From Patescibacteria group bacterium (GTDB taxonomy: Bacteria > Patescibacteriota > Minisyncoccia > Phycocordibacterales > VMEP01): DNA of 50,144 nucleotides. The translations under genes were made by a program, and so were the position numbers. Every line of letters starts with the position of its first letter. The first letter of the stretch is position 1. The notes beneath the pieces are model-generated. The model had not been told where the DNA came from. It ran no database searches and saw only the letters and a list, made by a program, of their open reading frames with translations. The DNA is taken from the NCBI GenBank assembly GCA_038065675.1, contig JBBTQM010000016.1, positions 1 through 50,144 of the forward strand. Direction: 5' to 3'. Of this stretch, positions 4,337 to 50,051 are shown one piece after another.

Positions 4337-4343
4337 CAAAAAA

Positions 4344-4400
4344 ATCATTAATTTAAACAAAATCCCCGCTTTATGCGGGGCTTTTGTTTAAATTAATGAT
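4344..4400 (+). terminator. Long, near-perfect hairpin directly after rpsJ
   Basis: Outer arms ATCATTAATTTAAACAAAA (4344-4362) / TTTTGTTTAAATTAATGAT (4382-4400). Inner stem CCCCGC/GCGGGG, loop TTTAT, one mismatch. It sits where rpsJ normally runs straight into rplC. Confidence 0.65.
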
Positions 4401-4487
4401 TAAATTGACAAATATGTATTTTTATTATTAAATGCGGACAGAAAATCGACCTTTCGTCCAACTCGTACATCCAAGTCCAAGGGGGTT

Positions 4488-4676
4488 ATGATGAAGAAAA
4501 GTATTGCCGTTTTTCTCTTGGGGTTCGTTGCGGCCGTTTCCTTCGCCTTGATAGCTCACGATTTGAGCGGTCACGGAATGAAGGAGGAAACCAAGCACTG
4601 CGCTACGTTTAACATCGGTGAGGGGTACCTGCGCGTTTGCGTGGGAGAAGTCCAATACCTAAGGCCCCTCCAATAG
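4488..4676 (+). CDS. Small secreted/membrane-anchored hypothetical protein (62 aa)
   Basis: GGGGG Shine-Dalgarno-like run 4 nt upstream. N-terminal signal-like segment MMKKSIAVFLLGFVAAVSFALIA. No recognisable family. Confidence 0.5.
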   Translation: MMKKSIAVFLLGFVAAVSFALIAHDLSGHGMKEETKHCATFNIGEGYLRVCVGEVQYLRPLQ

Positions 4677-4709
4677 CGAAAGCCCCGTTTCTAACATTAA
4701 GGAGCGCAT

Positions 4710-4905
4710 ATGCCGAGAGTTCGGCTCGAGAAAATTCCCCAGGAAATTCAACAGCGATACAACATCGGCGAGGAAGTGGAGGCCGATGTCGGATTTGATG
4801 TCACGGCTGGGGGGAAGCTTCACCTTCCGAAACAAGAAAGGGAAAGAGGTGCATGTAGATGCAGTGGAGCTCTGCGGCACCCCTATCATGGTCCGCGACC
4901 TTTGA
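4710..4905 (+). pseudogene. Small AbrB/SpoVT-like protein gene with apparent frameshift in a G6 run
   Basis: Strong RBS (TAAGGAG, 5 nt, ATG). The N-terminus RVRLEKIPQEIQQRYNIGEEVEADV resembles AbrB-type swapped-hairpin domains. After the G6 run at 4809-4814 the annotated frame becomes Arg-rich junk and runs through the terminator. The other frame reads GGSFTFRNKKGKEVHVDAVELCGTPIMVRDL and stops at 4903-4905, 14 nt before the terminator. Confidence 0.4.
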
Positions 4906-4919
4906 ATGATTCCCGGTTG

Positions 4920-4943
4920 GCCCGCGCCTCGCGCGGGCTTTTT
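4920..4943 (+). terminator. Intrinsic terminator
   Basis: GCCCGCGC (4920-4927), loop CTC, GCGCGGGC (4931-4938), then TTTTT. Confidence 0.75.
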
Positions 4944-5053
4944 CTTTGACTTGTTTGCCACGCGTAATTGACAAATGGTGTTTGAAAATATAACCTAAGC
5001 AACGGACTTGATTCTTTGTCAATCGAGAAACCCTTAACCAAAAGGAGTACGCT

Positions 5054-6629
5054 ATGAGCCGTTTATTGAGGTCGTTGGGCGTTATTGCATTTATCTTTAT
5101 CGTCACCGCGTGTGGCGGCGGTGGCGGCGGGAATACGTCTCCCGCACCTGTCTCTGCCCCGCCGGCAACGTACAGTATTTCTGGCACTGCCGCTCCAGGC
5201 GCCACAATCGCCGCGAGCGGGTCGGCGACAGCAAGTGCGATCGCCGCGGCGCAGACGGGACATTCAGTTTGTCCGGTCTCGCTAACGGCGCCTACACCGT
5301 CACGCCGTCGCTCACGGGATATTCATTTACCCCGACGAGCATGGCGAAAACGGTGAATGGTGCAAATGTGACCGGGGTGAATTTCACCGCTACGGCAAAT
5401 CCCGTCGTCCCGCCGACTAAGTACACTATTTCCGGCAAGGTGAGCGGTGGGGCTGGCATAATCGTCACCTTAAGCCCCAGTGGTGCGACGGTGACGACTG
5501 GTACGGACGGGAGTTACGAGTTCTCTGTGGTAAACGGGGGCTATACCGTCACTGCTCCGGGCGCAACCCCAGTCTCTGTAACGGTGAATGGAGCAAATGA
5601 AACGGGTATAAACATCGCGACGCCCATGCCAATCACCACTTCGTTGCCAGCCGGTTATGTGGTTCAGGGCGGGCTGACCTGGATGCCGGTGACCTTCATT
5701 GTGCCGGTAACCTTCGGTTCGACTTTCTGGGCGGATGCTAATGCTTATTGCACCAATACCACCATCAATGGACAGACCGGTTGGCGCATGCCGACCAAAG
5801 ATGAGTTGTTGAGCCTAGCCAATTCCGGGGCGTTGAACGCGGTGAACGGCCAGTGGGTCTGGTACTACGTCTGGTCGTCTACGCCCTATCCAACGGGCGG
5901 TTACTACGTCGTTTACTTGGATCCCACCAGGATATTCAACGGCACCGTCGATGTGGGCAGGGACGCCAACTATGTGTCGTGTGTCCACCCCGGTATTGTC
6001 CCCGCCCCACTGGCATCAGCGCTACTGTTGGCAACGGGCAAGTCACCGTCAGTTGGAATGCAGTTACGGGAGCGACCTCTTACAACCTTTACAGGGCATC
6101 GATCTCCGGTATCACCAAGAGCAACTACAGTTCATTAACCGGTGGAGTAAAGGTTGCCGGAGTTACCTCTCCATACATCCAAACCAGCTTGGCCAATAGC
6201 ACGACCTACTATTTTGTGGTGACGGCGGTCAATGCCAACGGAGAGAGTAACGAATCGAATCAGGTCTCGGCAACACCGCAGGTTGCTCCGTTGCCAGCAG
6301 GTTATGTGATTCAGGGCGGCCTGATCTGGATGCCGGTAACGTTAAACTTCAACTGGGCGGATGCCAATGCCTATTGCACCAATACCACCATTAACGGCCG
6401 AGCTGGCTGGCGTCTACCGACGCTAACCGAAGCATATGCCTTTTCTGCATCGTTTTTTTCCATCGGGGGGTTTCGCAATTCGTTGTGGACGTCACCCTAC
6501 ATGCCCTACATCTGGACGTCGACACCCGCTAGTGTTGGGAGCCACTACTTCGCCGATATCGTCATCGGCGTTGGCGGCAGTTTCGATGCGCGCGACGTGA
6601 ACCAATTCGGAGTGACGTGTGTCCTTTAG
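5054..6629 (+). pseudogene. Multidomain surface lipoprotein (CarboxypepD_reg-like repeats, DUF1566, FN3, DUF1566) broken by two frameshifts
   Basis: Three overlapping ORFs (5054, 5110 and 5853 in the track) read as one protein. It starts with a lipobox signal (FIFIVTAC), then YSISGTAAPGATI.../ADGTFSLSGLANGAYTVTPSLTGYSF beta-sandwich repeats. Next come WADANAYCTNTTINGQTGWRMPTKDEL (DUF1566-like), PTGISATVGNGQVTVSWNAVTGATSYNLYRA...YYFVVTAVNANGES (FN3) and a second DUF1566-like domain. The frame changes near 5235-5250 and in a C-run region near 5985-6005. Confidence 0.75.
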
Positions 6630-6743
6630 AGCCTTGGTCTGTGGAATCTCTTCATTGAGCCTTTAGGTATCGATGGAATGGGTGCAGTAGTCTTCGGCCC
6701 TGCCGGATTCTAGCTCGCTTGATTGAGTTTGTAGTAATTAAGT

Positions 6744-6770
6744 GGCCATCGCGAAAGCGGTGGCCTTTTT
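6744..6770 (+). terminator. Intrinsic terminator
   Basis: GGCCATCGC, loop GAAA, GCGGTGGCC (one G-U), then TTTTT. Confidence 0.75.
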
Positions 6771-6772
6771 GT

Positions 6773-6801
6773 TTGACTTTGGATATTTTTTATGATATAA
6801 T
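6773..6801 (+). promoter_or_regulatory. Near-consensus sigma70 promoter with extended -10
   Basis: TTGACT (6773-6778), 17-nt spacer, TGaTATAAT (6793-6801). Confidence 0.7.
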
Positions 6802-6902
6802 TAAATAAGTTAATTCCTATTCGTATGGATAGGTCATTCCGAAAGGGATAAGAGGGAAGCTTCTAACCCTGAATTAGAAGCGTTCGTTGAAAGGATCAAG
6901 AT

Positions 6903-7220
6903 ATGTCCATCGTTTGGGAAGATTGGTCTCAAGTCGTGAATGGACCTTCCAAGTTCGACCTGATGGTGTCGTTGTTCGAATCTACGACACAGGCATTACA
7001 GCCGCGTCGAACCACGGAGTTCCAGGTGAAGCACAAGGACAAACCATCAACCATTCATCTGAAAGTTGCCGTTTCCCTTATACAGCGTGAAGATGGGTCA
7101 GGAGAGTCCTGGAACTTTGAAGGATACGCTCTTCCCTCGGGCAAGAGATTAAAAGGTTATTACTCTACCCGGACCAGAAAGGGCACCGTCAAATTCCACG
7201 ATAACGGACCGCTCGTATAA
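6903..7220 (+). CDS. Hypothetical protein (105 aa)
   Basis: Intact ORF between a consensus promoter and a terminator, with an AAAGGA RBS-like element 8 nt upstream. No motif I recognise. Confidence 0.6.
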   Translation: MSIVWEDWSQVVNGPSKFDLMVSLFESTTQALQPRRTTEFQVKHKDKPSTIHLKVAVSLIQREDGSGESWNFEGYALPSGKRLKGYYSTRTRKGTVKFHDNGPLV

Positions 7221-7232
7221 ATAAAAAAATAT

Positions 7233-7269
7233 AACCCGCCTGCAAAAAATCTGCCCCGGCGGGTTTTTT
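7233..7269 (+). terminator. Intrinsic terminator
   Basis: AACCCGCC (7233-7240) / GGCGGGTT (7258-7265), 17-nt loop, T-run to 7269. Confidence 0.65.
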
Positions 7270-7270
7270 G

Positions 7271-7298
7271 TTGCATTTTTTGTACCCCCGTGTATACT
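7271..7298 (+). promoter_or_regulatory. Candidate outward promoter re-driving rplC and downstream genes
   Basis: TTGCAT (7271-7276), 16-nt spacer, TATACT (7293-7298) preceded by TG. A terminator-like hairpin TCCGCAA/TTGCGGA plus T6 (7345-7377) lies in the leader and is a possible attenuator. Confidence 0.45.
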
Positions 7299-7378
7299 CG
7301 CTAAGTCAGATCTACGTCCCCGTAATGGGGGACCAATGGACCACTCCGCAAATAGGATGCTCCATTGCGGATTTTTTA

Positions 7379-7532
7379 GTAGAAAATAGCGAGGTATGCC
7401 GAGCATATTTTCTTAACCCCTCACTTGCATCGTAAGAGGGGGATAGTAAGTAAAATAAGTGAAGAAATAAATATTGTATAGCAAGTGAGGGGTAGCGATT
7501 TTTATAGTCGTTTTACTCCTTAAAAATCAGTC
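7379..7532. repeat. Compound-hairpin intergenic repeat, copy 1 (inverted relative to copies 2 and 3)
   Basis: Arms ACCCCTCACTTGC (7416-7428) / GCAAGTGAGGGGT (7481-7493) enclose 52 nt. The reverse complement of the right flank (GACTGATTTTTAAGGAGTAAAACGACTATAAAAATCGCTACCCC) aligns with the left flank of copy 2. Confidence 0.7.
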
Positions 7533-8156
7533 ATGAAATTTATCGTCGGAACAAAACAGAATATGACCCAATTTTTCGCCGAAGACGGGCGGGCGTTCGC
7601 CGGCACCGTGCTTAAGGTGGAGCCGATGGTCGTTGCACAGGTAAAAGGAAAAGAAAAAGACGGCTATTCGGCGGTTATGGTCGGTTTCGGCGGCGCTCAA
7701 AAAGTGGAAAGAGTTTCCAAGGCGGTGCGCGGGCATTTGAAAGAAATTGCTCCGACCAAGGGTCTTAAAGAATTCAGAGTTTCCGAGGAAGAAGCAAAGG
7801 CATTCGCGCGCGCGCAGTCGATTGACGTATCAATATTTAATCCGGGCGACATCGTTGAAGTTTCAGCCATAACCAAAGGCAAAGGTTTTCAGGGTGTGGT
7901 TAAGCGACATGGATTTGCCGGCGGCCCGAGAACTCACGGCCAGAAACACTCCGAACGCGAAGCCGGTTCTATCGGAGCTACATGGCCCCAGCGCGTTATA
8001 AAAAACAAGCGCATGCCCGGACGCATGGGCGGAGACCGCGTTACGATTAAAAACCTGCGCGTGTTGGGAGTTGATGCGGCCGCGAATCTTATTTTAATAT
8101 CGGGAGCCATTCCGGGCCGCCGCGGAACTTTCGTTGAAGTAAGGGGCAGGAATTAG
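7533..8156 (+). CDS. rplC: 50S ribosomal protein L3
   Basis: 207 aa. The KGKGFQGVVKRHGFAGGPRTHG motif and its operon position. Confidence 0.96.
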   Translation: MKFIVGTKQNMTQFFAEDGRAFAGTVLKVEPMVVAQVKGKEKDGYSAVMVGFGGAQKVERVSKAVRGHLKEIAPTKGLKEFRVSEEEAKAFARAQSIDVSIFNPGDIVEVSAITKGKGFQGVVKRHGFAGGPRTHGQKHSEREAGSIGATWPQRVIKNKRMPGRMGGDRVTIKNLRVLGVDAAANLILISGAIPGRRGTFVEVRGRN

Positions 8157-9311: not shown

Positions 9312-10166
9312 ATGAAATTTTACAAACCCACAACTCCATCGCGCCGCCACATGTCCACCGTTACCTTCAAGGGGGTGCTTACTTCGTCTGTCCCGCATAA
9401 GGCTTTGACCTACGGCAAAAAGCGCCATGTCGGACGAAACGCGGACGGCAGAATCACCGTTCGCCACAAGGGAGGAGGACACAAACGCGTTCATCGCGAT
9501 GTTGATTTTCTGTACGACAAAAAAAATATTCCGGCGCGCGTGGAAAGCGTTGAATACGACCCGAACCGCTCCGGTTTTATCGGGCTTGTTGTTTATCGCG
9601 ACGGCGAGAGGCGCTATATGCTTCTTCCGAAAACTGTTCGCCCGGGAGCGAATATCATGGTTTCCGAAACAGCCGACATAACGCCGGGCAACCGCCTCCC
9701 TCTTTTGAAAATTCCTGTCGGCACTTTTGTTTACAATGTTGAAATCAAGCCGCGAGGCGGAGCGAAGCTTGTCAGAAGCGCCGGTGTTTTTGCCGAAGTG
9801 GTCGCGCAAGACGGCGGCTATACCAGTTTGAAGCTTCCTTCTACCGAAGTTCGCAAAGTTCCCGGTTCATCGTGGGCGTCGGTTGGCGAGGTTTCAAATG
9901 ACGAGCATAAGCTTCGTTCAATAGGCAAAGCGGGCCGCTCGCGCTGGCTTGGAATCCGCCCGACTGTCCGCGGCACCGCCATGAATCCGGTTGACCACCC
10001 TCACGGAGGAGGTGAAGGCAGGCAGGGCAGGGGTCTTCGCAGGGCGAAATCTCTATGGGGCAAGCCTACGGGCAAGGGACAAAAAACCAGAACTCCAAAG
10101 AAATACTCAAATATTTTTATTGTTTCCAGGAGAAAAGTTGGGAAGAAAAGAGAAACGAAGCAGTAA
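9312..10166 (+). CDS. rplB: 50S ribosomal protein L2
   Basis: 284 aa. Motifs GGGHKR and MNPVDHPHGGGEGR. Basic C-terminal tail. Confidence 0.97.
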   Translation: MKFYKPTTPSRRHMSTVTFKGVLTSSVPHKALTYGKKRHVGRNADGRITVRHKGGGHKRVHRDVDFLYDKKNIPARVESVEYDPNRSGFIGLVVYRDGERRYMLLPKTVRPGANIMVSETADITPGNRLPLLKIPVGTFVYNVEIKPRGGAKLVRSAGVFAEVVAQDGGYTSLKLPSTEVRKVPGSSWASVGEVSNDEHKLRSIGKAGRSRWLGIRPTVRGTAMNPVDHPHGGGEGRQGRGLRRAKSLWGKPTGKGQKTRTPKKYSNIFIVSRRKVGKKRETKQ

Positions 10167-10180
10167 GTCAGCAAAAAAAG

Positions 10181-10206
10181 AAGGCCGCCCGAGGGGGCGG
10201 CCTTTT
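10181..10206 (+). terminator. Hairpin after rplB (repeated at 10957-10977)
   Basis: AAGGCCGCCC, loop GAGG, GGGCGGCCTT, then TT. Confidence 0.6.
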
Positions 10207-10220
10207 CGATTGAGTTCACA

Positions 10221-10712
10221 TCACAGACAATTTTCATGTCTGGAAATCTGAAACAGAAGATCGATCGGGTTTTTCGTGTCCATGCGAGCCAGAGGATTTT
10301 CGACGATCATCTGGCGTACCAACTTCCCGTCTTTGTCGAACCACTGCTTGACTGGAGCTGGCCCACTACAGCGAATTGTTTTTCCCACGAGTTCGGCTAG
10401 CTCGCGCACAGTGGTGTTATCGCATGGTCCCCTCATCCAACCCTCTGCTTTCGTGGGGATGTTGCCCGGGATAATAAGAAGGGGTAAAAATATTTCCATA
10501 GTCACGTGCGCATGACATCGTTGAGGAATCAAGCTGACCCCTAATCCTGGGAAAGGAGCGGTACTTGCGAGCATACTATTCTTGTCGTGGACGAGGTGGA
10601 CCTCATCGATGGCAATGGAAGCCTCGATCTGTACCACCGATTCCTTGGTTATTTCAGGGGTGCAAGCATACAAGGCGAAAAAAACAACAACCCACACAGG
10701 GTAGCGAAACAT
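10221..10712 (-). CDS. Hypothetical lipoprotein (163 aa), antisense to the r-protein operon
   Basis: N-terminus MFRYPVWVVVFFALYAC (signal plus lipobox-like LYAC). AAGGAG RBS 6-7 nt upstream and its own promoter. No recognisable domain. Confidence 0.65.
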   Translation of the reverse strand: MFRYPVWVVVFFALYACTPEITKESVVQIEASIAIDEVHLVHDKNSMLASTAPFPGLGVSLIPQRCHAHVTMEIFLPLLIIPGNIPTKAEGWMRGPCDNTTVRELAELVGKTIRCSGPAPVKQWFDKDGKLVRQMIVENPLARMDTKNPIDLLFQISRHENCL

Positions 10713-10753
10713 TGGGGGACTCCTTATTTTGTGTAATTAAGAACAGACGATTG

Positions 10754-10783
10754 AATATAACAACTTAAATAAGTATTTGTCAA
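10754..10783 (-). promoter_or_regulatory. Sigma70-like promoter for the minus-strand lipoprotein gene
   Basis: On the minus strand: TTGACA (10783-10778), 17/18-nt spacer, TTATAT/TATATT (10760-10754). Confidence 0.55.
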
Positions 10784-10807
10784 TAGAAAACAATTATCGC
10801 GGATGTA

Positions 10808-10861
10808 TTTATCGTTTCCAGACGTAAGGTAGGAAAGAAAAGGAAAGAAACGAAGCAGTAA
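10808..10861 (+). repeat. Diverged duplicate of the rplB 3' end (last 17 codons plus stop)
   Basis: Encodes FIVSRRKVGKKRKETKQ*. Native rplB 10116-10166 encodes FIVSRRKVGKKRETKQ*. The nucleotide differences are synonymous (att/atc, agg/aga, aga/cgt, aaa/aag, gtt/gta, ggg/gga, aga/agg) plus one extra Lys codon. Confidence 0.85.
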
Positions 10862-10893
10862 AAAATCGGCCTGAATGGTCGATTTTTTACTGC
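10855..10893 (+). terminator. 14-bp hairpin over the stop of the duplicated rplB end
   Basis: GCAGTAAAAAATCG (10855-10868) / CGATTTTTTACTGC (10880-10893), 11-nt loop. Confidence 0.5.
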
Positions 10894-10901
10894 GAAGTCA
10901 A

Positions 10902-10911
10902 CCCCCCCCCC
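10902..10911. repeat. C10 homopolymer tract
   Basis: Ten consecutive C residues in non-coding DNA, about 65 nt upstream of the promoter at 10976. Confidence 0.9.
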
Positions 10912-10975
10912 ACAAAGGACCGCCCTTCGTTCGACAGCAAATAAGAAAAAAGTAGGCCGCCCAAGGGGGCGGTTT

Positions 10976-11004
10976 TTGACTTTCAGAAACCTGCATATTA
11001 GTAT
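10976..11004 (+). promoter_or_regulatory. Sigma70-like promoter for the 124-aa membrane protein gene
   Basis: TTGACT (10976-10981), 17-nt spacer, TAGTAT (10999-11004). It is preceded by hairpin CCGCCC/GGGCGG plus T5 (10957-10977). Confidence 0.6.
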
Positions 11005-11031: not shown

Positions 11032-11406
11032 ATGTTCATAGAATATTTGTACTTAAACATTATCCCTGTAGCTTTTCTGATATTTGCGTACAGATTCTCC
11101 TCCGGCCCAATGAAAGAAATGGCCGAGTGGAAAAACGATGAAATGGCCACCTGGACCATCTCATTCTTCACATTTTGGGCGTGGTTCGTCTTTTCCTGCA
11201 CCCTGATAGTTGTCCTGAATCGCTTATTTGAGGCGGAATGGAACTGGGTGTTTGTCGGATTACTGGGTGCTTTAGTGTCGTGGGTATCAACAATGATGAT
11301 GCACATTGATCCTGCCATGTGGCGGTTTGTCAGAGCAGCGACAACTTTCCCCGAACCACCCGGCTATTTTATGGATAATGACGGGGTCTGGAAAAGGTTA
11401 AGGTGA
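11032..11406 (+). CDS. Hypothetical integral membrane protein (124 aa)
   Basis: AGGAGG RBS 6 nt upstream. Three to four hydrophobic helices (IIPVAFLIFAY, WTISFFTFWAWFVFSCTLIVVL, VFVGLLGALVSWVSTMMM). Confidence 0.7.
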   Translation: MFIEYLYLNIIPVAFLIFAYRFSSGPMKEMAEWKNDEMATWTISFFTFWAWFVFSCTLIVVLNRLFEAEWNWVFVGLLGALVSWVSTMMMHIDPAMWRFVRAATTFPEPPGYFMDNDGVWKRLR

Positions 11407-11425: not shown

Positions 11426-11447
11426 AAAGCCCGCTTTTGCGGGCTTT
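11426..11447 (+). terminator. Intrinsic terminator
   Basis: AAAGCCCGC, loop TTTT, GCGGGCTTT. Confidence 0.7.
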
Positions 11448-11454
11448 CCCTTAT

Positions 11455-11483
11455 TTGACAAGCTAATTCAGTTTGTATAGTAT
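11455..11483 (+). promoter_or_regulatory. Outward sigma70-like promoter re-driving rpsS and downstream genes
   Basis: TTGACA (11455-11460), 17-nt spacer, TAGTAT (11478-11483). Same architecture as the promoter at 10976. Confidence 0.6.
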
Positions 11484-11585
11484 GATACCCAAGCTCGCTG
11501 GAGCTATTTTATTTTAATGACCGGAGAGTGGCGCCCACTCTAGGGTTGCAAGCCTCTCCCTCGTTAAAATCCAGCAACAAGCAAT

Positions 11586-11951
11586 ATGCGATCACTAAAA
11601 AAAGGACCATATGTTGAGGAGCGCCTGCTCAAAAAAATAGAAGGTAAAAAGCCGGGCGCTTTGGGCGTGATTAAAACATGGGCTCGCCGCTCCGACATAT
11701 CGCCTGAAATGGTCGGTTTTACCTTCGGAGTTCACAACGGCAAGAACCATATTGACGTTTTGGTGACTGAGGACATGGTTGGGCACAAGCTTGGTGAATT
11801 TTCGCCAACACGCAAATTCGTGAAGCACGGAGGCAAGATGCAGAAAGAAATTGAAGACCAGAAAAAACAGGCCGAAATCGCCTCCGCCCAAGCCGCCAAA
11901 GCCGCGACAACCGAGGGCGCCAACAAAGCTCCGGCAGCCCCTAAGAAATAA
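11586..11951 (+). CDS. rpsS: 30S ribosomal protein S19 with Ala/Lys/Gln-rich C-terminal extension
   Basis: [10 protein letters not shown]...[13 protein letters not shown] core, plus about 30 extra residues ([36 protein letters not shown]). Confidence 0.95.
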
Positions 11952-13116: not shown

Positions 13117-13539
13117 ATGCTTTTCCCTAAAAAGGTAAAATTCAGAAAGTGGCACAAATCGAGGAAAAACCTTTCCACGTCCAAGGAGACGCGCGGCATT
13201 GAAGTTTCATTCGGTTCGTTCGGATTGAAATCAATTGCCGTCGGGCGCATCCGTTCCAATCAGATAGAGTCCGCCCGCCGAACCATGGCTCGCCATGTCG
13301 GCAAATTCGGGAAAATCTGGGTGCGCGTTTTTCCGGACCGTCCGTTCACTCAGAAAGCCGCGGAAGTGCCCATGGGCAAAGGGAAAGGCGAGCCGGCTGG
13401 ATACGAAGTTGAAGTAAAACCCGGTCGCGTTATTTTTGAAGTTGACGGCGTTGAGCCGGTTGTCGCGCGAGAGGCCTTGAGAAAAGCCGGAACTAAACTT
13501 CCCGTTAAGACAAAAATCGTGAGCCGCGAGCTTATTTAG
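13117..13539 (+). CDS. rplP: 50S ribosomal protein L16
   Basis: 140 aa. MLFPKKVKFRKWHK start and PMGKGKGEP motif. Confidence 0.96.
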   Translation: MLFPKKVKFRKWHKSRKNLSTSKETRGIEVSFGSFGLKSIAVGRIRSNQIESARRTMARHVGKFGKIWVRVFPDRPFTQKAAEVPMGKGKGEPAGYEVEVKPGRVIFEVDGVEPVVAREALRKAGTKLPVKTKIVSRELI

Positions 13540-13697
13540 AAAATTAAGGAGTATATTTGCGACTATAATTTTCAAACCCCTCACTTGCGCCCGAATATGA
13601 ATTATGAGATACATAACTGGTTCGTAGGCGATTATCTGGAGCAAGTGAGGGGTGATGATTTTCAAAAACTCGCTTTGCTCGCTTAAGAAAATCAATC
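13540..13697. repeat. Compound-hairpin intergenic repeat, copy 2
   Basis: Arms ACCCCTCACTTGC (13576-13588) / GCAAGTGAGGGGT (13641-13653) enclose 52 nt. The flanks TAGAAAATTAAGGAG...GCGACTATAATTT and CTCGCTTTGCTCGCTTAAGAAAAT are shared with copy 3. Confidence 0.75.
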
Positions 13698-13880
13698 ATG
13701 TCCGAATTTAAATCAAAGAAAATGGAAGATTTAGGAAAGATTCTCGCTGAAAAAAGGGAGGCGCTTAGGATGTTCCGTTTCGGACTTTCCGGAAGCAAGG
13801 TTAAGAATCTCAAAGAAGGGAAAGGCTTGAAAAAAGACATCGCCAGAATTTTAACGGAGATTTCCGCGCGCAAAGAATAA
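13698..13880 (+). CDS. rpmC: 50S ribosomal protein L29
   Basis: 60 aa, helical. Position between rplP and rpsQ. Confidence 0.9.
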   Translation: MSEFKSKKMEDLGKILAEKREALRMFRFGLSGSKVKNLKEGKGLKKDIARILTEISARKE

Positions 13881-14533: not shown

Positions 14534-14839
14534 ATGCGCATAAAAAAAGGAGATAATGTAATAATATTGAGCGGCAAAGACAAAGGCAAAAAAGGAACGA
14601 TTGCCCGCGTTTTGACCGGCACTAACCGCGTAATCATAGAAGGCGCCAATGTTGTGAAGCGCCATCAGAAGCCGCGCAAAAGCGGACAGAAGGGCTCGAT
14701 AGTGGACGTCGCCCTACCCATTCACGTCTCAAACGTCGCGCTCCTTGACCCGAAAAGCGGAAAAGGAACTCGCTTTGGTACTACGCAAAAAGGAGGTAAG
14801 ATGGTCAGAATTTCAAAGAAAAGCGGAGCGGAAATTTAG
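14534..14839 (+). CDS. rplX: 50S ribosomal protein L24
   Basis: 101 aa. KOW motif IKKGDNVIILSGKDKGKKG. Confidence 0.95.
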   Translation: MRIKKGDNVIILSGKDKGKKGTIARVLTGTNRVIIEGANVVKRHQKPRKSGQKGSIVDVALPIHVSNVALLDPKSGKGTRFGTTQKGGKMVRISKKSGAEI

Positions 14840-15071
14840 AAAATTAACGAGCGAATAATATGAGCGACTATAATTTACTTAACCCCCCACCAAATTTACT
14901 AAAAAATATGAAACTGAAATTAAAAATAGGATTAAGCGAATATACCAAAGGCGCCACTGGCCCGGATAGGGCCGGGCTATTCGCCCGCGTGGCGCCGAGT
15001 ATTATTACTGGTAAATTTGGTGGGGGGTCATTATTTTCTAAAATCTCGCTTGCGCTCGCTTAAGAAAATAT
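14840..15071. repeat. Compound-hairpin intergenic repeat, copy 3
   Basis: Arms ACCCCCCACCAAATTTAC (14882-14899) / GTAAATTTGGTGGGGGGT (15010-15027) enclose 110 nt with an inner hairpin GGCGCCAC...GTGGCGCC. The outer flanks are homologous to copy 2. Confidence 0.75.
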
Positions 15072-15680: not shown

Positions 15681-16706
15681 ATGGATAAAAAAACTCTTAT
15701 ACAGCAGATAGAAAAATTAAGGGGTTCTCGTGTTATTACTTATGTAACTAGTGACCGGCCTGGGCCTATAAACGCCCGTGTCGCTATGGATATTATTCCG
15801 CTTGTAAGCGCGCAGCTTCGCAAAATAGGAAAGGTGCCGAAAATAGATTTGTTTCTATATAGCGCAGGGGGAGATACCATGGTTCCGTGGCGGCTTGTAT
15901 CTATGATTAGAGAATATTGTAATACGTTCTCCGTACTTATTCCTTACAAAGCCCACAGTTCGGCAACTATGATTGCTCTCGGTGCCGATGAAGTCGTAAT
16001 GAGTGATTTGTCAGAAATTTCACCAATTGACCCCTCCACTGCTAATATTTTTAATCCATCCGACCAAACCAATCCACAAAATAAAATACCAATTTCTGTT
16101 GAAGATGTTATAGCATATTTTGACTTGGCAAAAAATAAATTTGGTATAAAAAATGACGAAGACTTGACCAAGATATTCAATAAATTTGTGGAGTCAAACC
16201 CCCAAATTCACCCTCTCGCTCTCGGTAATGTGAATCGTACACATAATCTTATTCGCCTTTTGGCGAAACGGCTTTTGAAGAGCCATCAAAAGCCAATACA
16301 CGATGACGAAATAAAGAAAATCGTGGAATATTTTACTGAAACACTATACTCGCACCAGTATTTTGTCGGCAGAAAAGAAGCAAAAGAGGATCTTGGTCTA
16401 AAATTTGTGATTGATGCTGACAAGAATCTCTCAGATCTTATGACAGACCTTTATGAAAAGTATGCCGAAGAGATAGGATTAGGTAAGCAGTGGAATCCAG
16501 AAGGCGAAATTGGAATGAATAATGCTTCGGTGCAGAAAGAATACAGAATTGCTTATGTAGGAAGTTCAGACGTTGAAAATTACTACAGTATCTCAATGGA
16601 GTTTCGCAGACAGCAGGTTAATATGGTTCAACAAACTTCTCAGGGTCCAATCCAAATTCCACAAGAGCAGGTTGGTTTTAGAATAATTGAGCAGGGGTGG
16701 AAGTAA
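15681..16706 (+). CDS. ClpP-fold serine protease of the SDH ('serine dehydrogenase proteinase', S49-like) type with an unassigned helical C-terminal half
   Basis: The N-terminal third (ITYVTSDR, DLFLYSAGGDTMVPWRLVSMIREY, IPYKAHSSATMIALGADEVVM, ISPIDPS) matches my recollection of the SDH/ClpP-class peptidase signature. The remaining 200 aa or so are unassigned. Visibly AT-richer than its neighbours. Confidence 0.7.
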   Translation: MDKKTLIQQIEKLRGSRVITYVTSDRPGPINARVAMDIIPLVSAQLRKIGKVPKIDLFLYSAGGDTMVPWRLVSMIREYCNTFSVLIPYKAHSSATMIALGADEVVMSDLSEISPIDPSTANIFNPSDQTNPQNKIPISVEDVIAYFDLAKNKFGIKNDEDLTKIFNKFVESNPQIHPLALGNVNRTHNLIRLLAKRLLKSHQKPIHDDEIKKIVEYFTETLYSHQYFVGRKEAKEDLGLKFVIDADKNLSDLMTDLYEKYAEEIGLGKQWNPEGEIGMNNASVQKEYRIAYVGSSDVENYYSISMEFRRQQVNMVQQTSQGPIQIPQEQVGFRIIEQGWK

Positions 16707-16710
16707 AATT

Positions 16711-17301
16711 ATGGCTAATTATATTAAAATATTTTTAGGATTTTTTAATGACAACCTTGGTGTTGTTACTCTTATAGCTGGAGCTTTTGCTCTTTTTCTT
16801 TATAAAAGACAACAAAGAGATTATAAAAAGGATGCTGCGAGTTTAATTTTGCAAGAAATTAGATATGCAGAACAACAAATTAGAACTGCTAGACAAAATG
16901 GTGACAGTTATTCGTTGGCTTCAAAATTATTACCTACAAATAGTTGGAATGATAAAATTCATCTTTTTGTAAAAGACTTGGAAGAGAATCAAATTGATAT
17001 GATTAATACTTTTTATGCAAAAGCAAAATACATTGATATTCTTATTTTGAAACGCTCGGATCAATTAACAGGACCCCATACACAGCAAAACCAGTTCTCT
17101 CCTGCATCAATTCCCGTGCCCCAAAACCCAGGACAATTGAATCAGTTTGTACAAGTTACCTTGCCTATTCCCCCTTCCCCAGAAAGCGTCACAATTGGGC
17201 TTTTAAAACAAGTTTCGTCTAGTGTTGAGTTTATTTACAATACCCCAGTTGTAGAAAAATTAAGAAAGATATCAAATAAAAAATGGTGGCACCTTTTTTA
17301 G
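16711..17301 (+). CDS. Membrane-anchored hypothetical protein (196 aa), partner of the protease
   Basis: Start taken at the ATG at 16711 (MANYIKIFLGFFNDNLGVVTLIAGAFALFLY), 4 nt after the protease stop, with GGGGTGGAAG upstream. One N-terminal TM helix, a helical domain and a Q/P-rich segment. Confidence 0.65.
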   Translation: MANYIKIFLGFFNDNLGVVTLIAGAFALFLYKRQQRDYKKDAASLILQEIRYAEQQIRTARQNGDSYSLASKLLPTNSWNDKIHLFVKDLEENQIDMINTFYAKAKYIDILILKRSDQLTGPHTQQNQFSPASIPVPQNPGQLNQFVQVTLPIPPSPESVTIGLLKQVSSSVEFIYNTPVVEKLRKISNKKWWHLF

Positions 17302-42676: not shown

Positions 42677-44380
42677 GTGTCCATTAAATTTATGAAAGAA
42701 GATTACAGTCACCTAAAATTCGTTTACTACGGGCGTCGCTCGATAAAGGCCAATAAGACTGAATTGGACACAAGAATTGCGTCCCTTGATTCTCAAAAGT
42801 TTGAGATTGATCAACTCGCCGATAGATACAATATAACCATTCTCAAAACGTTCAGTGAAACGGAATCCGCCAGCGAGGCTGATGAGCGTCCAGAGTTCGA
42901 GAAGATGGTTGCCTATATTAAGTCTGGCAAGGCAAATGCAATTCTTTGTTTCGCAATTGATCGTTTGTCTCGTAATCCTATGGACAGTGCAAAAATTGAA
43001 ACTATGCTACAGAAAGGAAATCTGCAGATGGTTCTTGCACCTGATAGGAAGTGGACTCTCGATGGTCACGTCATTGCACGTGTTGTAGAAGCTGCGGCAG
43101 CAAACCAGTACATCATTGATCTCAAAAAACATATAAAGCGTGGGCAAGGAGACGCAGTGCGTCGTGGGTTCAGACCTGGCCTTGCTCCAATTGGATATAT
43201 AAACAGTAGATATCGTGAGAAGGGAATGGATGAGGAAATTAAGGTAGATGAACATCCATTCAGAATCCTCCGCTCGATGTTCGATAGAGTTTTGTCGGGC
43301 CAGTACACACCTTTCCAAGTATTGAAGTGGGCTACAGAGGTAGAAGGTTTCCGTTCTCGTAAAACAAGACGCTATCCCAAGGGCCGACCTCTATCCAAAG
43401 CTGCTTGGTACAATATTCTTTCTTCGCGTTTTTACTATGGAGAGTTTGAGTATCCAACAGGAGCTGGCAACTGGACTCAAATTACAGGTATGTACTACAA
43501 GCCTCTAATTACACGGGCAGAGTTTGAGACGGTTCAACATATTCTCCGTAAAGATGCTCCGCGCCCTAAGAAGCACGAACATGCGTATGTAGGACTTATG
43601 CGCTGTGGCCATTGTGGTGCAAGAATCACTTGTGAAGCCAAGACCAAACGCCAGAAGAATGGGAATGTTCACCACTATTCCTACTACCGTTGTACTGGCC
43701 AAGTTGATCCAGACTGCACTGAGAAATGCACTCGTCAGGACAGGCTAGAAGAACAGGTGGTTAACTACCTATCTTCAATCCAGATTTCTCCCGCCTTCCA
43801 TCAGTGGGCGATCAGTGAACTCAAAAAGGAATACGACAGAGAGATGGATAACAAAACCTCAGTCCTCTATTTGCAACATCGTGAGCACCAAAAAGTTAAA
43901 GAGATGCTTACGCGCCTCTACGATATGAGATTGGTGGGAGATATTGACTCCGACTATTTCCAGAAAGAGAAGGGTAGATTAGAAACTGAGGAAAAGAGGC
44001 TTGATGGTCAATTGGCAGTTATAAACGCACGCGTCCAAACATGGATATATGATGCTGAACGCATAATGACCTTCGCAGAGCGCGCCGCCAGTGAGTTTAA
44101 GAAGGGGTCTATGGAGAAGAGACGCTCTATTCTTGCTGCTCTTGGTACCGAACATAAACTCATGAACCGTGAGTTGACTATAAAAACACAAAAACCACTC
44201 CGTGTGGTACACGAAATGGTTTCTGAGTCGAAAGAAGCAGGATTTCCATTAGAACCTCCCAAAGAGCCTTTAGAATATGGCTCAAATGGAAAAAAGAAAC
44301 CTGTCAGTCTACGGTTGTGGAGATGGGGGGAATCGAACCCCCGTGCAGGTGAGATGCAACCGAACGTCTACAATGCGTAG
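42677..44380 (+). CDS. Large serine recombinase (phage-integrase type)
   Basis: Resolvase-type N-domain with catalytic-Ser context FVYYGRRSIKAN. Recombinase domain (GLAPIGY), zinc ribbon (CGHCGARITC...YYRCTG) and coiled coil. The start may be the ATG at 42692. The last 63 nt overlap ssrA on the opposite strand. Confidence 0.9.
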   Translation: MSIKFMKEDYSHLKFVYYGRRSIKANKTELDTRIASLDSQKFEIDQLADRYNITILKTFSETESASEADERPEFEKMVAYIKSGKANAILCFAIDRLSRNPMDSAKIETMLQKGNLQMVLAPDRKWTLDGHVIARVVEAAAANQYIIDLKKHIKRGQGDAVRRGFRPGLAPIGYINSRYREKGMDEEIKVDEHPFRILRSMFDRVLSGQYTPFQVLKWATEVEGFRSRKTRRYPKGRPLSKAAWYNILSSRFYYGEFEYPTGAGNWTQITGMYYKPLITRAEFETVQHILRKDAPRPKKHEHAYVGLMRCGHCGARITCEAKTKRQKNGNVHHYSYYRCTGQVDPDCTEKCTRQDRLEEQVVNYLSSIQISPAFHQWAISELKKEYDREMDNKTSVLYLQHREHQKVKEMLTRLYDMRLVGDIDSDYFQKEKGRLETEEKRLDGQLAVINARVQTWIYDAERIMTFAERAASEFKKGSMEKRRSILAALGTEHKLMNRELTIKTQKPLRVVHEMVSESKEAGFPLEPPKEPLEYGSNGKKKPVSLRLWRWGESNPRAGEMQPNVYNA

Positions 44381-44689
44381 TCTTTTTCGAAGTTTAAGAA
44401 AGGCGGTAAGAGAAAGACAAGATAACGCCCTCCCGATTCTCTATTTTCTCAAACGGCGCGAGAGACACGCGCCGTTCCAGTCTGAAAAGATGACACCCGT
44501 CACAACGTATCAGACGTCGGAAGTGCGGATGCGGCTTAGGCTAAAGCGAAAGCCGGAGCGTAAGGAGATAGAATCCCCTTAGCTTTTGAAAGTGCATTTG
44601 CATGTACTTTTTCCGAAAGTTTAGCGAGATTTCGGAGCTCGGCATTGCAATCCGGAAGCGATCAGCATCTGTCTATGCCGATCATCCCC
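44318..44689 (-). ncRNA. ssrA: tmRNA (SsrA)
   Basis: On the minus strand, 5' GGGGAUGAUCGGCAUAGACAG... to ...GGGGGUUCGAUUCCCCCCAUCUCCA 3'. Acceptor stem with G3-U70, T-arm GGGGG/UUCGAUU/CCCCC. An Ala-rich tag frame ends ...YAPAFALA-UAA. Adjacent to smpB. CCA is not encoded. Confidence 0.9.
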
Positions 44690-47308: not shown

Positions 47309-47382
47309 CCACCCCTAGCTCAGTTGGTTAGAGCACAGAGCTTATACCTCTGCGGTCCTTGGTTCGAATCCAAGGGGGTGGA
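47309..47382 (+). tRNA. tRNA-Ile with anticodon UAU
   Basis: Hand-folded cloverleaf: acceptor CCACCCC/GGGGTGG, U8 A9, D-arm GCTC-AGTTGGTTA-GAGC, anticodon arm CAGAG-CTTATAC-CTCTG (anticodon TAT at 47343-47345), variable loop CGGTC, T-arm CTTGG-TTCGAAT-CCAAG, discriminator A. CCA is not encoded. Confidence 0.85.
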
Positions 47383-47397
47383 CAGAAAAATAAAAAA

Positions 47398-47870: not shown

Positions 47871-50051
47871 TCACTCAAAATGCATTTTTCCGGACTTCTC
47901 AATTATTTTTTTAAGTCCAGGATGATTTTTCAGTTCCGGGTCTTTCGTTATTATATTTTTTGCCGATTCGCGCGCCGCTTCCACCATTTTTATGTTTTTT
48001 ATCGCTTCCATCGCCAGGTCGGAGAGCCCCCATTGTTTGCCGCCGCTAAGTTCTCCGGCGCCTCTCATTTTTAAATCCGTCTCCGCCAGTTCAAACCCGC
48101 TTTTGGCGTCCCTGATAGCCCTCAATCGTTCGCCTGATTTTCCGTTTTTTGTTTCGGAAAAGAGATAGCAGTATGCCTGATGCGAACTCCTTAAAACTCG
48201 TCCGCGGAGCTGATGAAGCTGGGAGAGTCCGAAACGCTCCGCTCCTTCTATTATTATTGAGGTCGCGTTTTCAACGTTGACCCCGACTTCAACCATTGAG
48301 GTGGCGACAAGGATATCCGTTTCCCCTTCGGTAAATTTTTTCATCACCGCCTCCTTTTCCTTGTCTTTCATTTTGCTATGGAGAATGGCGATTTCATGCT
48401 CCGGAAAAATTTCTTTTTTGAGCCGCGCCGCTTCCGCTTTTACTGATTTTGCCAGCAATGCCAATTCTTTGTCAGGGTCAGGCTCGTCTATTCGCGGGCA
48501 AATAACGTACGCTTGCCTGCCGGCGCTAAGTTCCTTCCTGATTTTTTCATAAACCCCGCCGCGCTTTTCCTTAGATACTATTTCGGTCAATACCGTTTTT
48601 CTTCCTTCCGGCATTTCGTCAATAAGGGTCAAGTCCAAATCGCCGTAAATAGTGAGTGCGAGAGTCCGAGGTATCGGTGTTGCGGTCATGGAGAGCAGGT
48701 GCGGAACGGTGGAATTGGTGCCGGTGTTTTTTTGCGCCAAGGCGCTTCGCTGAAAGGTTCCAAAACGGTGCTGTTCATCTATTATGGAAAGCGCCAAATG
48801 CTTGAAAGAAACGGATTTTTGTATTATGGCGTGCGTACCGATAAGAATCGGTATTTCCCCGTTAGCTACCCATTTTAAAAGTTGCGCGCGCGATATATCG
48901 GTGGCTTTATCGGGAGATGTTTTTGACGGAAATTTTTTGCACCCGGAGCCGGTTATCAGCCCTATTTGTATCGGAAGATGTGAAAAATACCGCATGAAAG
49001 ATTCAAAGTGCTGTTTGGCCAGTATTTCGGTAGGCGCCATGTAGGCGACTTGAAGATTACCGAATTTGCCGCCCGCATTTTCTTTCGGCCGCGTTGAAAC
49101 GATTGCGTAAGCCGCCGCCGCGGCCACCAAGGTTTTGCCGGAACCGACGTCTCCTTCAAGAAGCCGCATCATGGGGGCTCCGCTTCCCAAATCTTTCACG
49201 ATTTCCATAAGGGCACGTTCTTGCGCCGCGGTCGGCTTGAAAGGAAAGCGCGATAAAAAATCACCCATCTCATCACCCAAATCGCGCGCCACGAACGCGG
49301 GGCGCGAACCGTATTCCAGGCGGCGTTTTTGTTCGGCTAGTTGTATCATAAAAATTTGCTCAAAAGAAAAACGTTTTCTGGCGGCAACATTTTCTTTTTC
49401 TTCGCGCGGCGCGTGTATCCACAAAAGAGCGGTTCTTATTCTGGGGAGATGGTACTTATCAAGAACATCGGCCGGAATCGTTTCTTCAATTGAATCAATA
49501 CCACCGGCCAATATTTTTTTTATGGAGTGGTAAAACCACCTAGATGTAATTCCGCGACTCTCGGGGTAAATCGGAAGAAGCGGAGTTTCCGGCATATCGG
49601 TGCCTACTTCAAAAAGCGAGTCGCTTGATTCCGGCAAGGCGCCGCCGCCCCAGTGTTCTATTTCCGGATTCGCAAGATAAAGTCCGTTTTTTCCGGAAGA
49701 AACCGTCCCGCGTAATTTCACCGCGTTTCCATCATGAAACATTTTGGCAAGATACGGTTGATTGAACCAGATAACCTTTATATTTCCGGTCTCGTCTTCA
49801 ACAATTGCTTCACCCAAAGGAGTTTTTTTCCTAAATGCCTTTCTGGTTTTTAATTTTTTTATTTTGCCGTATATCGTAACGCTATCTTTCGGCACAAGTT
49901 CGCTTATTTTTTTTACTTCACGCAAATTATCGTAACGAGACGGGAAATGGTAAAGAAGACCGCGGAGCGTCGTTAAGTTTAGCTTTTTCAGCGCTTTATT
50001 TTGCGCCGGAGTAAGGCGGAAAACGGATTCTATGTTATCCGATAAATTCAT
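47871..50051 (-). CDS. recG: ATP-dependent DNA helicase RecG
   Basis: 726 aa. Wedge/OB N-terminus and helicase motifs GDVGSGKT, DEQHRFG, SMTATPIPRT and QLHQLRGRV. Confidence 0.95.
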   Translation of the reverse strand: MNLSDNIESVFRLTPAQNKALKKLNLTTLRGLLYHFPSRYDNLREVKKISELVPKDSVTIYGKIKKLKTRKAFRKKTPLGEAIVEDETGNIKVIWFNQPYLAKMFHDGNAVKLRGTVSSGKNGLYLANPEIEHWGGGALPESSDSLFEVGTDMPETPLLPIYPESRGITSRWFYHSIKKILAGGIDSIEETIPADVLDKYHLPRIRTALLWIHAPREEKENVAARKRFSFEQIFMIQLAEQKRRLEYGSRPAFVARDLGDEMGDFLSRFPFKPTAAQERALMEIVKDLGSGAPMMRLLEGDVGSGKTLVAAAAAYAIVSTRPKENAGGKFGNLQVAYMAPTEILAKQHFESFMRYFSHLPIQIGLITGSGCKKFPSKTSPDKATDISRAQLLKWVANGEIPILIGTHAIIQKSVSFKHLALSIIDEQHRFGTFQRSALAQKNTGTNSTVPHLLSMTATPIPRTLALTIYGDLDLTLIDEMPEGRKTVLTEIVSKEKRGGVYEKIRKELSAGRQAYVICPRIDEPDPDKELALLAKSVKAEAARLKKEIFPEHEIAILHSKMKDKEKEAVMKKFTEGETDILVATSMVEVGVNVENATSIIIEGAERFGLSQLHQLRGRVLRSSHQAYCYLFSETKNGKSGERLRAIRDAKSGFELAETDLKMRGAGELSGGKQWGLSDLAMEAIKNIKMVEAARESAKNIITKDPELKNHPGLKKIIEKSGKMHFE

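Follow-up and report, generated by a model that had tools for sequence, protein, structure and literature searches.

Islands that integrate at tRNA and tmRNA genes, as well as phage 21 and e14 in icd, encode an integrase, have a fixed core and fixed ends, and carry a replacement 3' end for their target gene; in the icd case, this replacement end differs mainly at synonymous sites. In pangenome integration hot spots, a permissive intergenic site between core genes gathers accessory genes through recombination in the flanks. Promoter/stem-loop (PeSL) modules flank novel open reading frames (ORFs) in T4-type phages. The adjacency of rplB and rpsS, on the other hand, is among the most conserved of bacterial gene orders. 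At Rhs, contact-dependent inhibition (CDI) and type VI secretion system (T6SS) loci, an old 3' end is displaced rather than deleted behind a conserved upstream coding anchor, without an integrase and in repeated independent events that build arrays (PMC5361080). Here we focus on a locus at which rplB and rpsS have been separated. It lies in a 50,144-nt stretch of DNA (contig JBBTQM010000016.1, positions 1 to 50,144; the whole stretch is called the window) from a Paceibacteria genome (Patescibacteria, or candidate phyla radiation, CPR) of Hainich groundwater, within a ribosomal protein cluster (tuf, rpsJ, rplC-D-W-B, rpsS and further genes). The Paceibacteria are ultra-small and uncultured. Behind the intact rplB stands a second copy of its 3' end, with a putative lipoprotein gene between the two copies. 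The arrangement at this locus works like the C-terminal displacement at polymorphic-toxin loci, and it lacks the defining marks of an island, an integron cassette or a tandem duplication. The analysis is strongest in showing that the rplB-rpsS adjacency is broken throughout the clade and that foreign-derived gene-end scars occur repeatedly.

The C-terminus encoded by rplB reads KKYSNIFIVSRRKVGKKRETKQ before the stop codon. The distal copy (Table 1), which is read in frame 3, matches the last 17 rplB codons and has one additional Lys codon (AAA). Seven codons differ between the copies, all of them synonymously (ATT/ATC, AGG/AGA, AGA/CGT, AAA/AAG, GTT/GTA, GGG/GGA and AGA/AGG), and the final 15 nt (GAAACGAAGCAGTAA) are identical. 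The copies lie 692 nt apart and are ~81% identical; their local alignment has a score of 58, while shuffled sequences reach no more than 28, and blastn gives an E value of 6e-7. Upstream of the distal copy, the rplB homology breaks off abruptly at ~10803-10808, where in-frame stops precede it (TT-stop-ISICQ-stop-KTIIADV). The copy is therefore not the remainder of a longer rplB pseudogene, a possibility that the initial annotation of this DNA had named against its own proposal. The hairpin T1 behind rplB recurs at 10946-10977 with 28 of 32 positions identical, and both copies form strong stem-loops. The motif GGCCGCCCNNGGGGGCGG is found only at these two places in the 50 kb (0 expected), with no dispersed copies of the hairpin, and no other gene-end duplicates were found in the window. 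Between the two rplB ends, the only ORF is that of the 163-aa lipoprotein. The initial annotation had described the synonymously diverged repeat with its extra Lys codon, the repeated hairpin, and a cassette without an integrase, holding only a minus-strand lipoprotein gene with its own promoter and ribosome-binding site (RBS); this description is correct, down to the single ORF, which lacks relatives. What it overlooked is that the entire rplB-rpsS spacer (1.4 kb with two genes, for the lipoprotein and a membrane protein) is inserted DNA, and that the junction is a hot spot throughout the clade.

We scanned 122 loci of the clade for a further, translatable copy of the C-terminus of their own L2. 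Five have one: the window and the loci coded L086, L153, L195 and L200 (codes of this form denote clade or comparison loci). The distal copy of the window comprises 17 codons and is followed by the membrane-protein gene. L086 has a distal copy of 66 nt, encoding PKKYSNVLIVSRRKVGKKRKG and a stop, which shows five synonymous differences and lies behind ~1.7 kb of cargo with two ORFs without known domains; the next gene encodes the only homologue (59% identical) of the window's membrane protein, again between rplB and rpsS, and the hairpin copy of this locus has a compensatory base change. In L200, a distal copy of 16-17 codons with four synonymous differences follows ~560 nt of cargo with one 87-aa ORF, and is itself followed by rplJ, the neighbour of rplB that is normal for its subclade, as in the relatives L175 and L136. 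The distal copy of L195 (FSRRKVGKK and a stop) differs at one synonymous codon and lies behind ~790 nt that encode a 62-aa membrane peptide and a Cas2/PaaX_M-like ORF; a duplicated promoter-like region and more ORFs come after it. L153 has no cargo at all. Here VGKKRKG and a stop (2028-2075, with rplB on the plus strand) stand in frame right behind the rplB stop, five of the seven codons differing synonymously, and the copy is followed by its own terminator. The L2 proteins of L153 and L086 are 95% identical, and the distal fragment of L153 matches the distal copy of L086 at 22 of 24 positions. Across the five cases, the left boundaries lie 7, 9, ~16, 17 and 21 codons ahead of the stop, that is, up to 14 codons apart. 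A pattern scan of IMG/VR matched three stretches, none with rplB-like sequence.

Duplication does not always reach into the gene. In L089/L090, L165, L183, L179, L162 and L105, the terminator or the terminator/promoter module alone is duplicated around the first cargo gene. The short terminator/promoter modules repeated between successive novel genes, as in L089, are reminiscent of PeSL modules, and by that analogy they could serve as short homology for shuffling. Unlike PeSL, the setting is a cellular genome and the repeat at the scarred loci reaches into ribosomal protein coding sequence.

The nature of the differences tells where the copies come from. All 22 of the 22 differing codons in the five pairs are synonymous (pS 0.2-1.1, pN 0), while neutral decay in place predicts ~37% synonymous differences (P ~4e-10). 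An ascertainment bias is possible in that decayed copies are harder to detect; DNA-level scans, which are unbiased toward synonymous change, recovered the same cases except L153. Because every differing codon is synonymous and decay in place is rejected, the two copies of each pair stem from different lineages, in which they diverged under protein-level selection. The claim that both copies had once been selected as real rplB ends, made from the window by itself, is thus borne out in all five pairs. Since the non-functional copy shows no decay, the two lineages' rplB ends must have been joined recently.

Which of the two ends is native to the window was a question of the initial annotation, and it can be answered in part. 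Downstream of the distal copy, a hairpin over the stop codon is followed by ACTGCGAAGT and then by a GCCGCCC..GGGCGG terminator that runs into TTTTTGACTTT. This flank matches the region downstream of the intact rplB in L214 and L089. L214 has a hairpin of different sequence at the position of 10855-10893, and its L2 tail (KRKETSQ) is the most similar to that of the window. By comparison with these two loci, 10946-11004 is predicted to be the native terminator/promoter module of rplB. The copy that adjoins the conserved older neighbour is the distal one, both in the window and in L200. Given these flanks, the conserved neighbours and the membrane-protein homologue in L086, the distal end and the DNA downstream of it probably represent the older arrangement, with the lipoprotein gene and T1 as the newcomer. 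The native context of the distal copy therefore stands, and the proximal coding end may or may not have been imported: codon usage leans weakly toward a native proximal copy, with an indecisive log ratio of 1.9 on 7 codons, and in a 36-nt block the proximal copy matches L214 at 30/36 and the distal copy at 26/36 positions, counted from the alignment, a difference too small to decide. In a conserved 33-nt block, the two window copies agree at 26/33 positions, like random clade members (mean 23-25). A clear mosaic that had been read from this block and the identical tail was withdrawn, because L086 and L153 also differ strongly there despite their similar L2 proteins.

Table 1. Features of the rplB-rpsS region in the window
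Feature	Position	Strand	Basis
rplB (uL2), intact, 284 aa	9312-10166	+	Pfam Ribosomal_L2_N and Ribosomal_L2_C; C-terminus typical of the clade
Proximal copy, functional rplB 3' end (FIVSRRKVGKKRETKQ, stop)	10116-10166	+	Sequence comparison, blastn
Hairpin T1, two-way terminator common to rplB and the convergent lipoprotein gene	10174-10205		Folding: -24.3 kcal/mol (+), -22 (-)
Putative lipoprotein gene (cargo), 163 aa; N-terminus MFRYPVWVVVFFALYAC, a signal peptide followed by Cys17	10221-10712	-	ORF
Cargo RBS AAGGAG (10720-10725) and promoter TTGACA-18-TATATT with TG (10754-10783)	10720-10783	-	Promoter, 11/12 matches
Novel joint, end of insert against distal rplB fragment	10784-10807		rplB homology begins ~10803-10808
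Distal copy, displaced rplB 3' end (FIVSRRKVGKKRKETKQ, stop); no start codon, stops upstream	10808-10861	+	7 synonymous, 0 non-synonymous codon differences
17-bp hairpin spanning the stop codon of the distal copy	10855-10893	+	-27 kcal/mol, z -7.8
Poly-C run; its length is the sole difference among four assemblies	10902-10911		Assembly comparison
Hairpin T2 (10946-10977, copy of T1) overlapping promoter TTGACT-17-TAGTAT	10946-11004	+	Folding; comparison with L214/L089
124-aa membrane protein gene with own promoter and terminator, older resident of the gap	11032-11406	+	Synteny of homologue
Terminator (11426-11447), then rpsS promoter TTGACA-17-TAGTAT (11455-11483)	11426-11483	+	Promoter and folding analysis
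rpsS (uS19), usual direct neighbour of rplB	11586-11951	+	Pfam Ribosomal_S19

The separation of rplB and rpsS is a property of the whole clade. In 64 loci of the clade, with L2 proteins of 60% or more identity to the query, the gap from the rplB stop to rpsS has a median of 836 nt (range 29-7851 nt), and 50 of these loci have a gap of 250 nt or more. The corresponding median in 61 loci of other bacteria is 31 nt, and none of their gaps is longer than 235 nt. The gap content is mostly unrelated between lineages of the clade, and even the nearest relatives of the window, with L2 proteins 81-83% identical, each have different content at the junction or none. Among the genes found there are those for DUF3298, diacylglycerol kinase, mechanosensitive-channel, peptidoglycan-binding and InlB-repeat surface proteins, MazF toxins and a glycoside hydrolase, and the gap of one subclade holds rplJ/rplL. 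The junction is thus an accessory-gene hot spot, with surface and membrane proteins and toxin-antitoxin genes predominating. A terminator 3' of rplB and a conserved promoter and leader 5' of rpsS are common to the window and its relatives; the rpsS leader (11472-11576) is 89% identical to that of L089 and conserved in L089/L090. The S10 operon of this clade is split at the rplB|rpsS junction into separate transcription units, and it is because of this split that insertions are tolerated there. An entire CPR clade has in this way turned one of the most stable gene junctions into a variable site for accessory genes. It differs from the hot spots of other pangenomes in that the site lies inside the near-universal S10 operon and in that foreign-derived gene-end scars are left behind. 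In the literature, we found no description of an island that targets rplB or of a hot spot between rplB and rpsS in the CPR. The matter is also of practical concern: blocks of ribosomal protein genes serve the binning of metagenome-assembled genomes and phylogeny, and both gene calling and marker extraction can suffer where this junction holds inserted genes or incomplete copies of genes.

We put at roughly 0.5 the probability that the repeat is a recombination scar from the import of related-lineage DNA, by a homologous crossover in rplB and a non-homologous joint. The donor would be a related lineage with a different gene behind rplB. The highly conserved rplB sequence would allow the donor's fragment to pair with the recipient and lead to one homologous crossover, and the far, non-homologous end would then be joined illegitimately a few codons ahead of the recipient's rplB end. 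In this process, the recipient's last codons, its terminator/promoter module and its downstream gene would be pushed downstream. The product would read, in order, an intact rplB, a terminator and cargo, the last 7-21 codons of the other lineage with stop and terminator/promoter module, and finally the old neighbour. The proposed route is homology-facilitated illegitimate recombination (HFIR) or, equivalently, the single crossover of a circularised fragment, which gives the same product and is indistinguishable from HFIR here. With the same even odds, the scar would not be part of a self-mobile element; both the route (HFIR or transformation) and the parent that acted as recipient are inferred.

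For T6SS loci with displaced effector ends and Rhs loci with orphan 3' regions, HFIR is a route already suggested (PMC5361080). The rplB loci share with these the conserved upstream coding anchor, the displaced but retained 3' end, the lack of an integrase and the repeated independent events that build arrays. Unlike at Rhs, CDI and T6SS loci, the displaced and the replacing ends encode the same peptide, so that no diversity is generated; an essential gene, that of a ribosomal protein, is targeted, and what is gained is an unrelated neighbour gene. HFIR leads one to expect copies from different lineages, which is what the 22 of 22 synonymous codons (P ~4e-10) indicate, and a displaced copy in its native downstream context, which is seen in the L214/L089 flanks, the membrane protein of L086 and the rplJ of L200. 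A gene for RecG is present at 47871-50051 of the window.

Several observations weigh against an origin of the scar by HFIR. The process is rare in experiments (PMC5361080). Neither a donor (rplB-T1-lipoprotein without a distal copy) nor an empty-site variant was found in contig and protein searches. Symmetric HFIR predicts some duplicates of the rpsS 5' end, yet no such mirror duplicates were found in ~50 gaps; the process looks one-sided, and it would be an ad hoc rescue to suppose that promoter-bearing fragments of rpsS are selected against. In addition, although the gene is 850 nt long, none of the five joints lies more than 21 codons from its end, a clustering that hints at a preferred site. 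If scars of this kind are what we take them for, they provide a direct and datable trace of gene gain from relatives in tiny genomes with few mobile elements, and one could search uncultured bacteria for them systematically, as signs of genes recently gained through recombination.

A preferred site would be expected of a small integrative cassette, with an attachment site in the rplB 3' end, that brings a replacement end and is moved in trans by a site-specific recombinase. We regard such a cassette as unlikely, even though part of the evidence suits it. The target is intact and the native end displaced; the ~15-16-nt identical stretch that ends both window copies could be a core; the joints all lie in the last 21 codons, with no mirror event at rpsS; and a large serine recombinase is encoded elsewhere in the window (42677-44380). 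Frequent excision would also let selection keep both ends translatable, which would explain the pN of 0. However, no recombinase is encoded in the cargo between the copies of the window, L086, L195 or L200, nor was one found among the 148 largest gap ORFs (in the best 25 of 60 families) or in the three largest gaps. The boundaries differ in the five cases with no common core or end motif visible, the cargo genes are unrelated and that of the window is without any relatives, and the cargo-less L153 cannot result from precise excision. Among the contigs that carry the lipoprotein or membrane-protein gene, neither an empty site nor a second context was found. Serine recombinases are also not known to create long target duplications.

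The initial annotation had likened the locus to islands that integrate at tRNA and tmRNA genes. As in those islands and in phage 21/e14 at icd, the target gene has remained whole and the insert is bounded by a partial copy of its 3' end, and this part of the model has stood: the insert is bracketed, and the distal copy behaves like a displaced native end. The discrete integrating island has not. Unlike the known islands, the inserts have no recombinase and variable ends, their left boundaries differ, they share no core, the cargo is unrelated and consists of one gene or, in L153, none, and no mobility is seen. A search for the cassette at other sites, which had been suggested as a check, showed the lipoprotein in this single context only and gave no evidence of movement.

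A looser version, in which Paceibacteria capture cassettes without an integrase and the rplB 3' end with its terminator/promoter acts as a portable attachment site, used through homology or an unrecognised recombinase in trans, seems to us rather improbable. If it were true, insertion and perhaps excision of single genes, each with its own promoter, would take place at an integron-like platform on a ribosomal protein gene, with both gene ends kept translatable by selection. Like integron cassette arrays, these loci show promoter-proximal single-gene insertions bounded by hairpins, with older cassettes pushed downstream. Unlike in integrons, the hairpins are ordinary terminators with a GC stem and a T-tract that differ between loci, and the window ORFs scanned include no IntI or other tyrosine recombinase, although no formal search with an attC model was made.

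Of a similarly low order is the chance of a Campbell-type single crossover, in which circular DNA (a small plasmid or a circularised fragment) with a relative's rplB 3' end and terminator would enter through RecA-dependent homologous recombination within ~100 bp of homology. This would yield exactly two co-extensive copies flanking the insert, and the weak mosaic of the window fits it, with the proximal copy closer to L214 in the 36-nt block, an L214-like distal flank and identical tails. This mosaic, however, rests on 4 nucleotides. Homology of 50-100 bp at ~80% identity is a poor substrate for RecA, a prior illegitimate circularisation is required, and the cargo-less L153 is left unexplained.

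Duplication in place does occur at this junction. In L067, a Pyrinomonadaceae locus, a 132-bp tandem duplication (4777-5031) spans the last 42 nt of rplB and the rplB-rpsS spacer; its copies are 98% identical and enclose no insert. One could therefore imagine that the rplB end and intergenic region of the scarred loci were duplicated in tandem, that a gene was later inserted between the copies, and that the proximal copy was replaced by a diverged allele, which would likewise give synonymous-only differences. We consider this very unlikely, as each of the five lineages would have had to undergo three separate events, simple divergence in place is rejected, and the position of the cargo exactly between the copies in every case would be left unexplained. 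A simple tandem duplication is rejected for the window on the distance, the identity and the synonymous-only differences of its copies.

The region is base-for-base alike in four independent assemblies (ENA Hain_H43 R1 and R3, and the single-run Logan assemblies ERR3858116 and ERR3858118) apart from the poly-C run, inside which one Logan contig terminates. Every contig found with the lipoprotein or the membrane-protein gene has the identical arrangement. A chimeric join of two strains, which the metagenomic nature of the data and a repeat that could mislead the assembler might suggest and which the initial annotation had named as a danger, is effectively refuted by the same unique joints in all four assemblies, two of them from single runs, and by the same architecture at other loci in unrelated data sets.

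The cargo gene itself offers few clues. The lipoprotein belongs to no Pfam family, and no homologues were found in a word-indexed search and an exhaustive HMMER search (5.8 billion / 1.84 billion representative proteins), the sole match of the latter being a weak repeat match to P0124, a repeat protein sorted by the type IX secretion system (T9SS). Its AlphaFold model is uninformative (pLDDT 36). The cassette is not compositionally foreign, its GC and GC3 (0.55 for the lipoprotein gene) being like those of the genome, and Rfam gave no match in the region.

Some minor observations concern the scarred loci themselves. In the window, the spacer directly after the rplB stop (10167-10184, GTCAGCAAAAAAAGAAGG) reads V S K K R R and is similar to the L153-type remnant GTCGGCAAGAAGAGGAAGG; this spacer may represent a third fragment of an rplB end, now decayed, or simply the A-tract of the two-way terminator. 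In L195, a direct repeat of ~35 nt (..ATATAT[CA/GC]GCCATGGCGTAAATGTGTAA..), at ~735-775 and ~1180-1215 of the oriented locus, flanks the Cas2/PaaX_M-like ORF, and from its sequence this appears to be a nested cassette-like structure inside the rplB-bracketed insert.

Further observations concern other parts of the window. Between rpsJ and rplC (4337-7532), 3.2 kb of inserted genes encode surface proteins with Lcl_C, fn3 and CarboxypepD_reg domains; the insert has an internal paralogous repeat (5639-5795 versus 6286-6421) and its own terminator/promoter at 6744-6801. This junction is variable in L088, L089 and L215 as well, and looks like a second hot spot of the same kind. After rplE in the spc part of the cluster, 15681-17301 holds a gene for a ClpP-like SDH-type serine protease (341 aa) and a domainless ORF of 204 aa. 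Leader-like intergenic repeats occur in the cluster at 13645-13692 versus 15020-15069 (86%), 13534-13584 versus 14834-14890 (77%) and 7480-7535 versus 13640-13700 (77%), and may be shared internal promoters or leaders. The large serine recombinase gene mentioned above is on the plus strand (Resolvase, Recombinase and Zn_ribbon_recom domains) and overlaps the 3' end of the tmRNA gene (44315-44689, minus strand) by ~66 nt; 42677-44689 is probably an element integrated at tmRNA. Finally, ARAGORN finds a tRNA-Ile at 47309-47383 whose anticodon, TAT, is unusual for bacteria.

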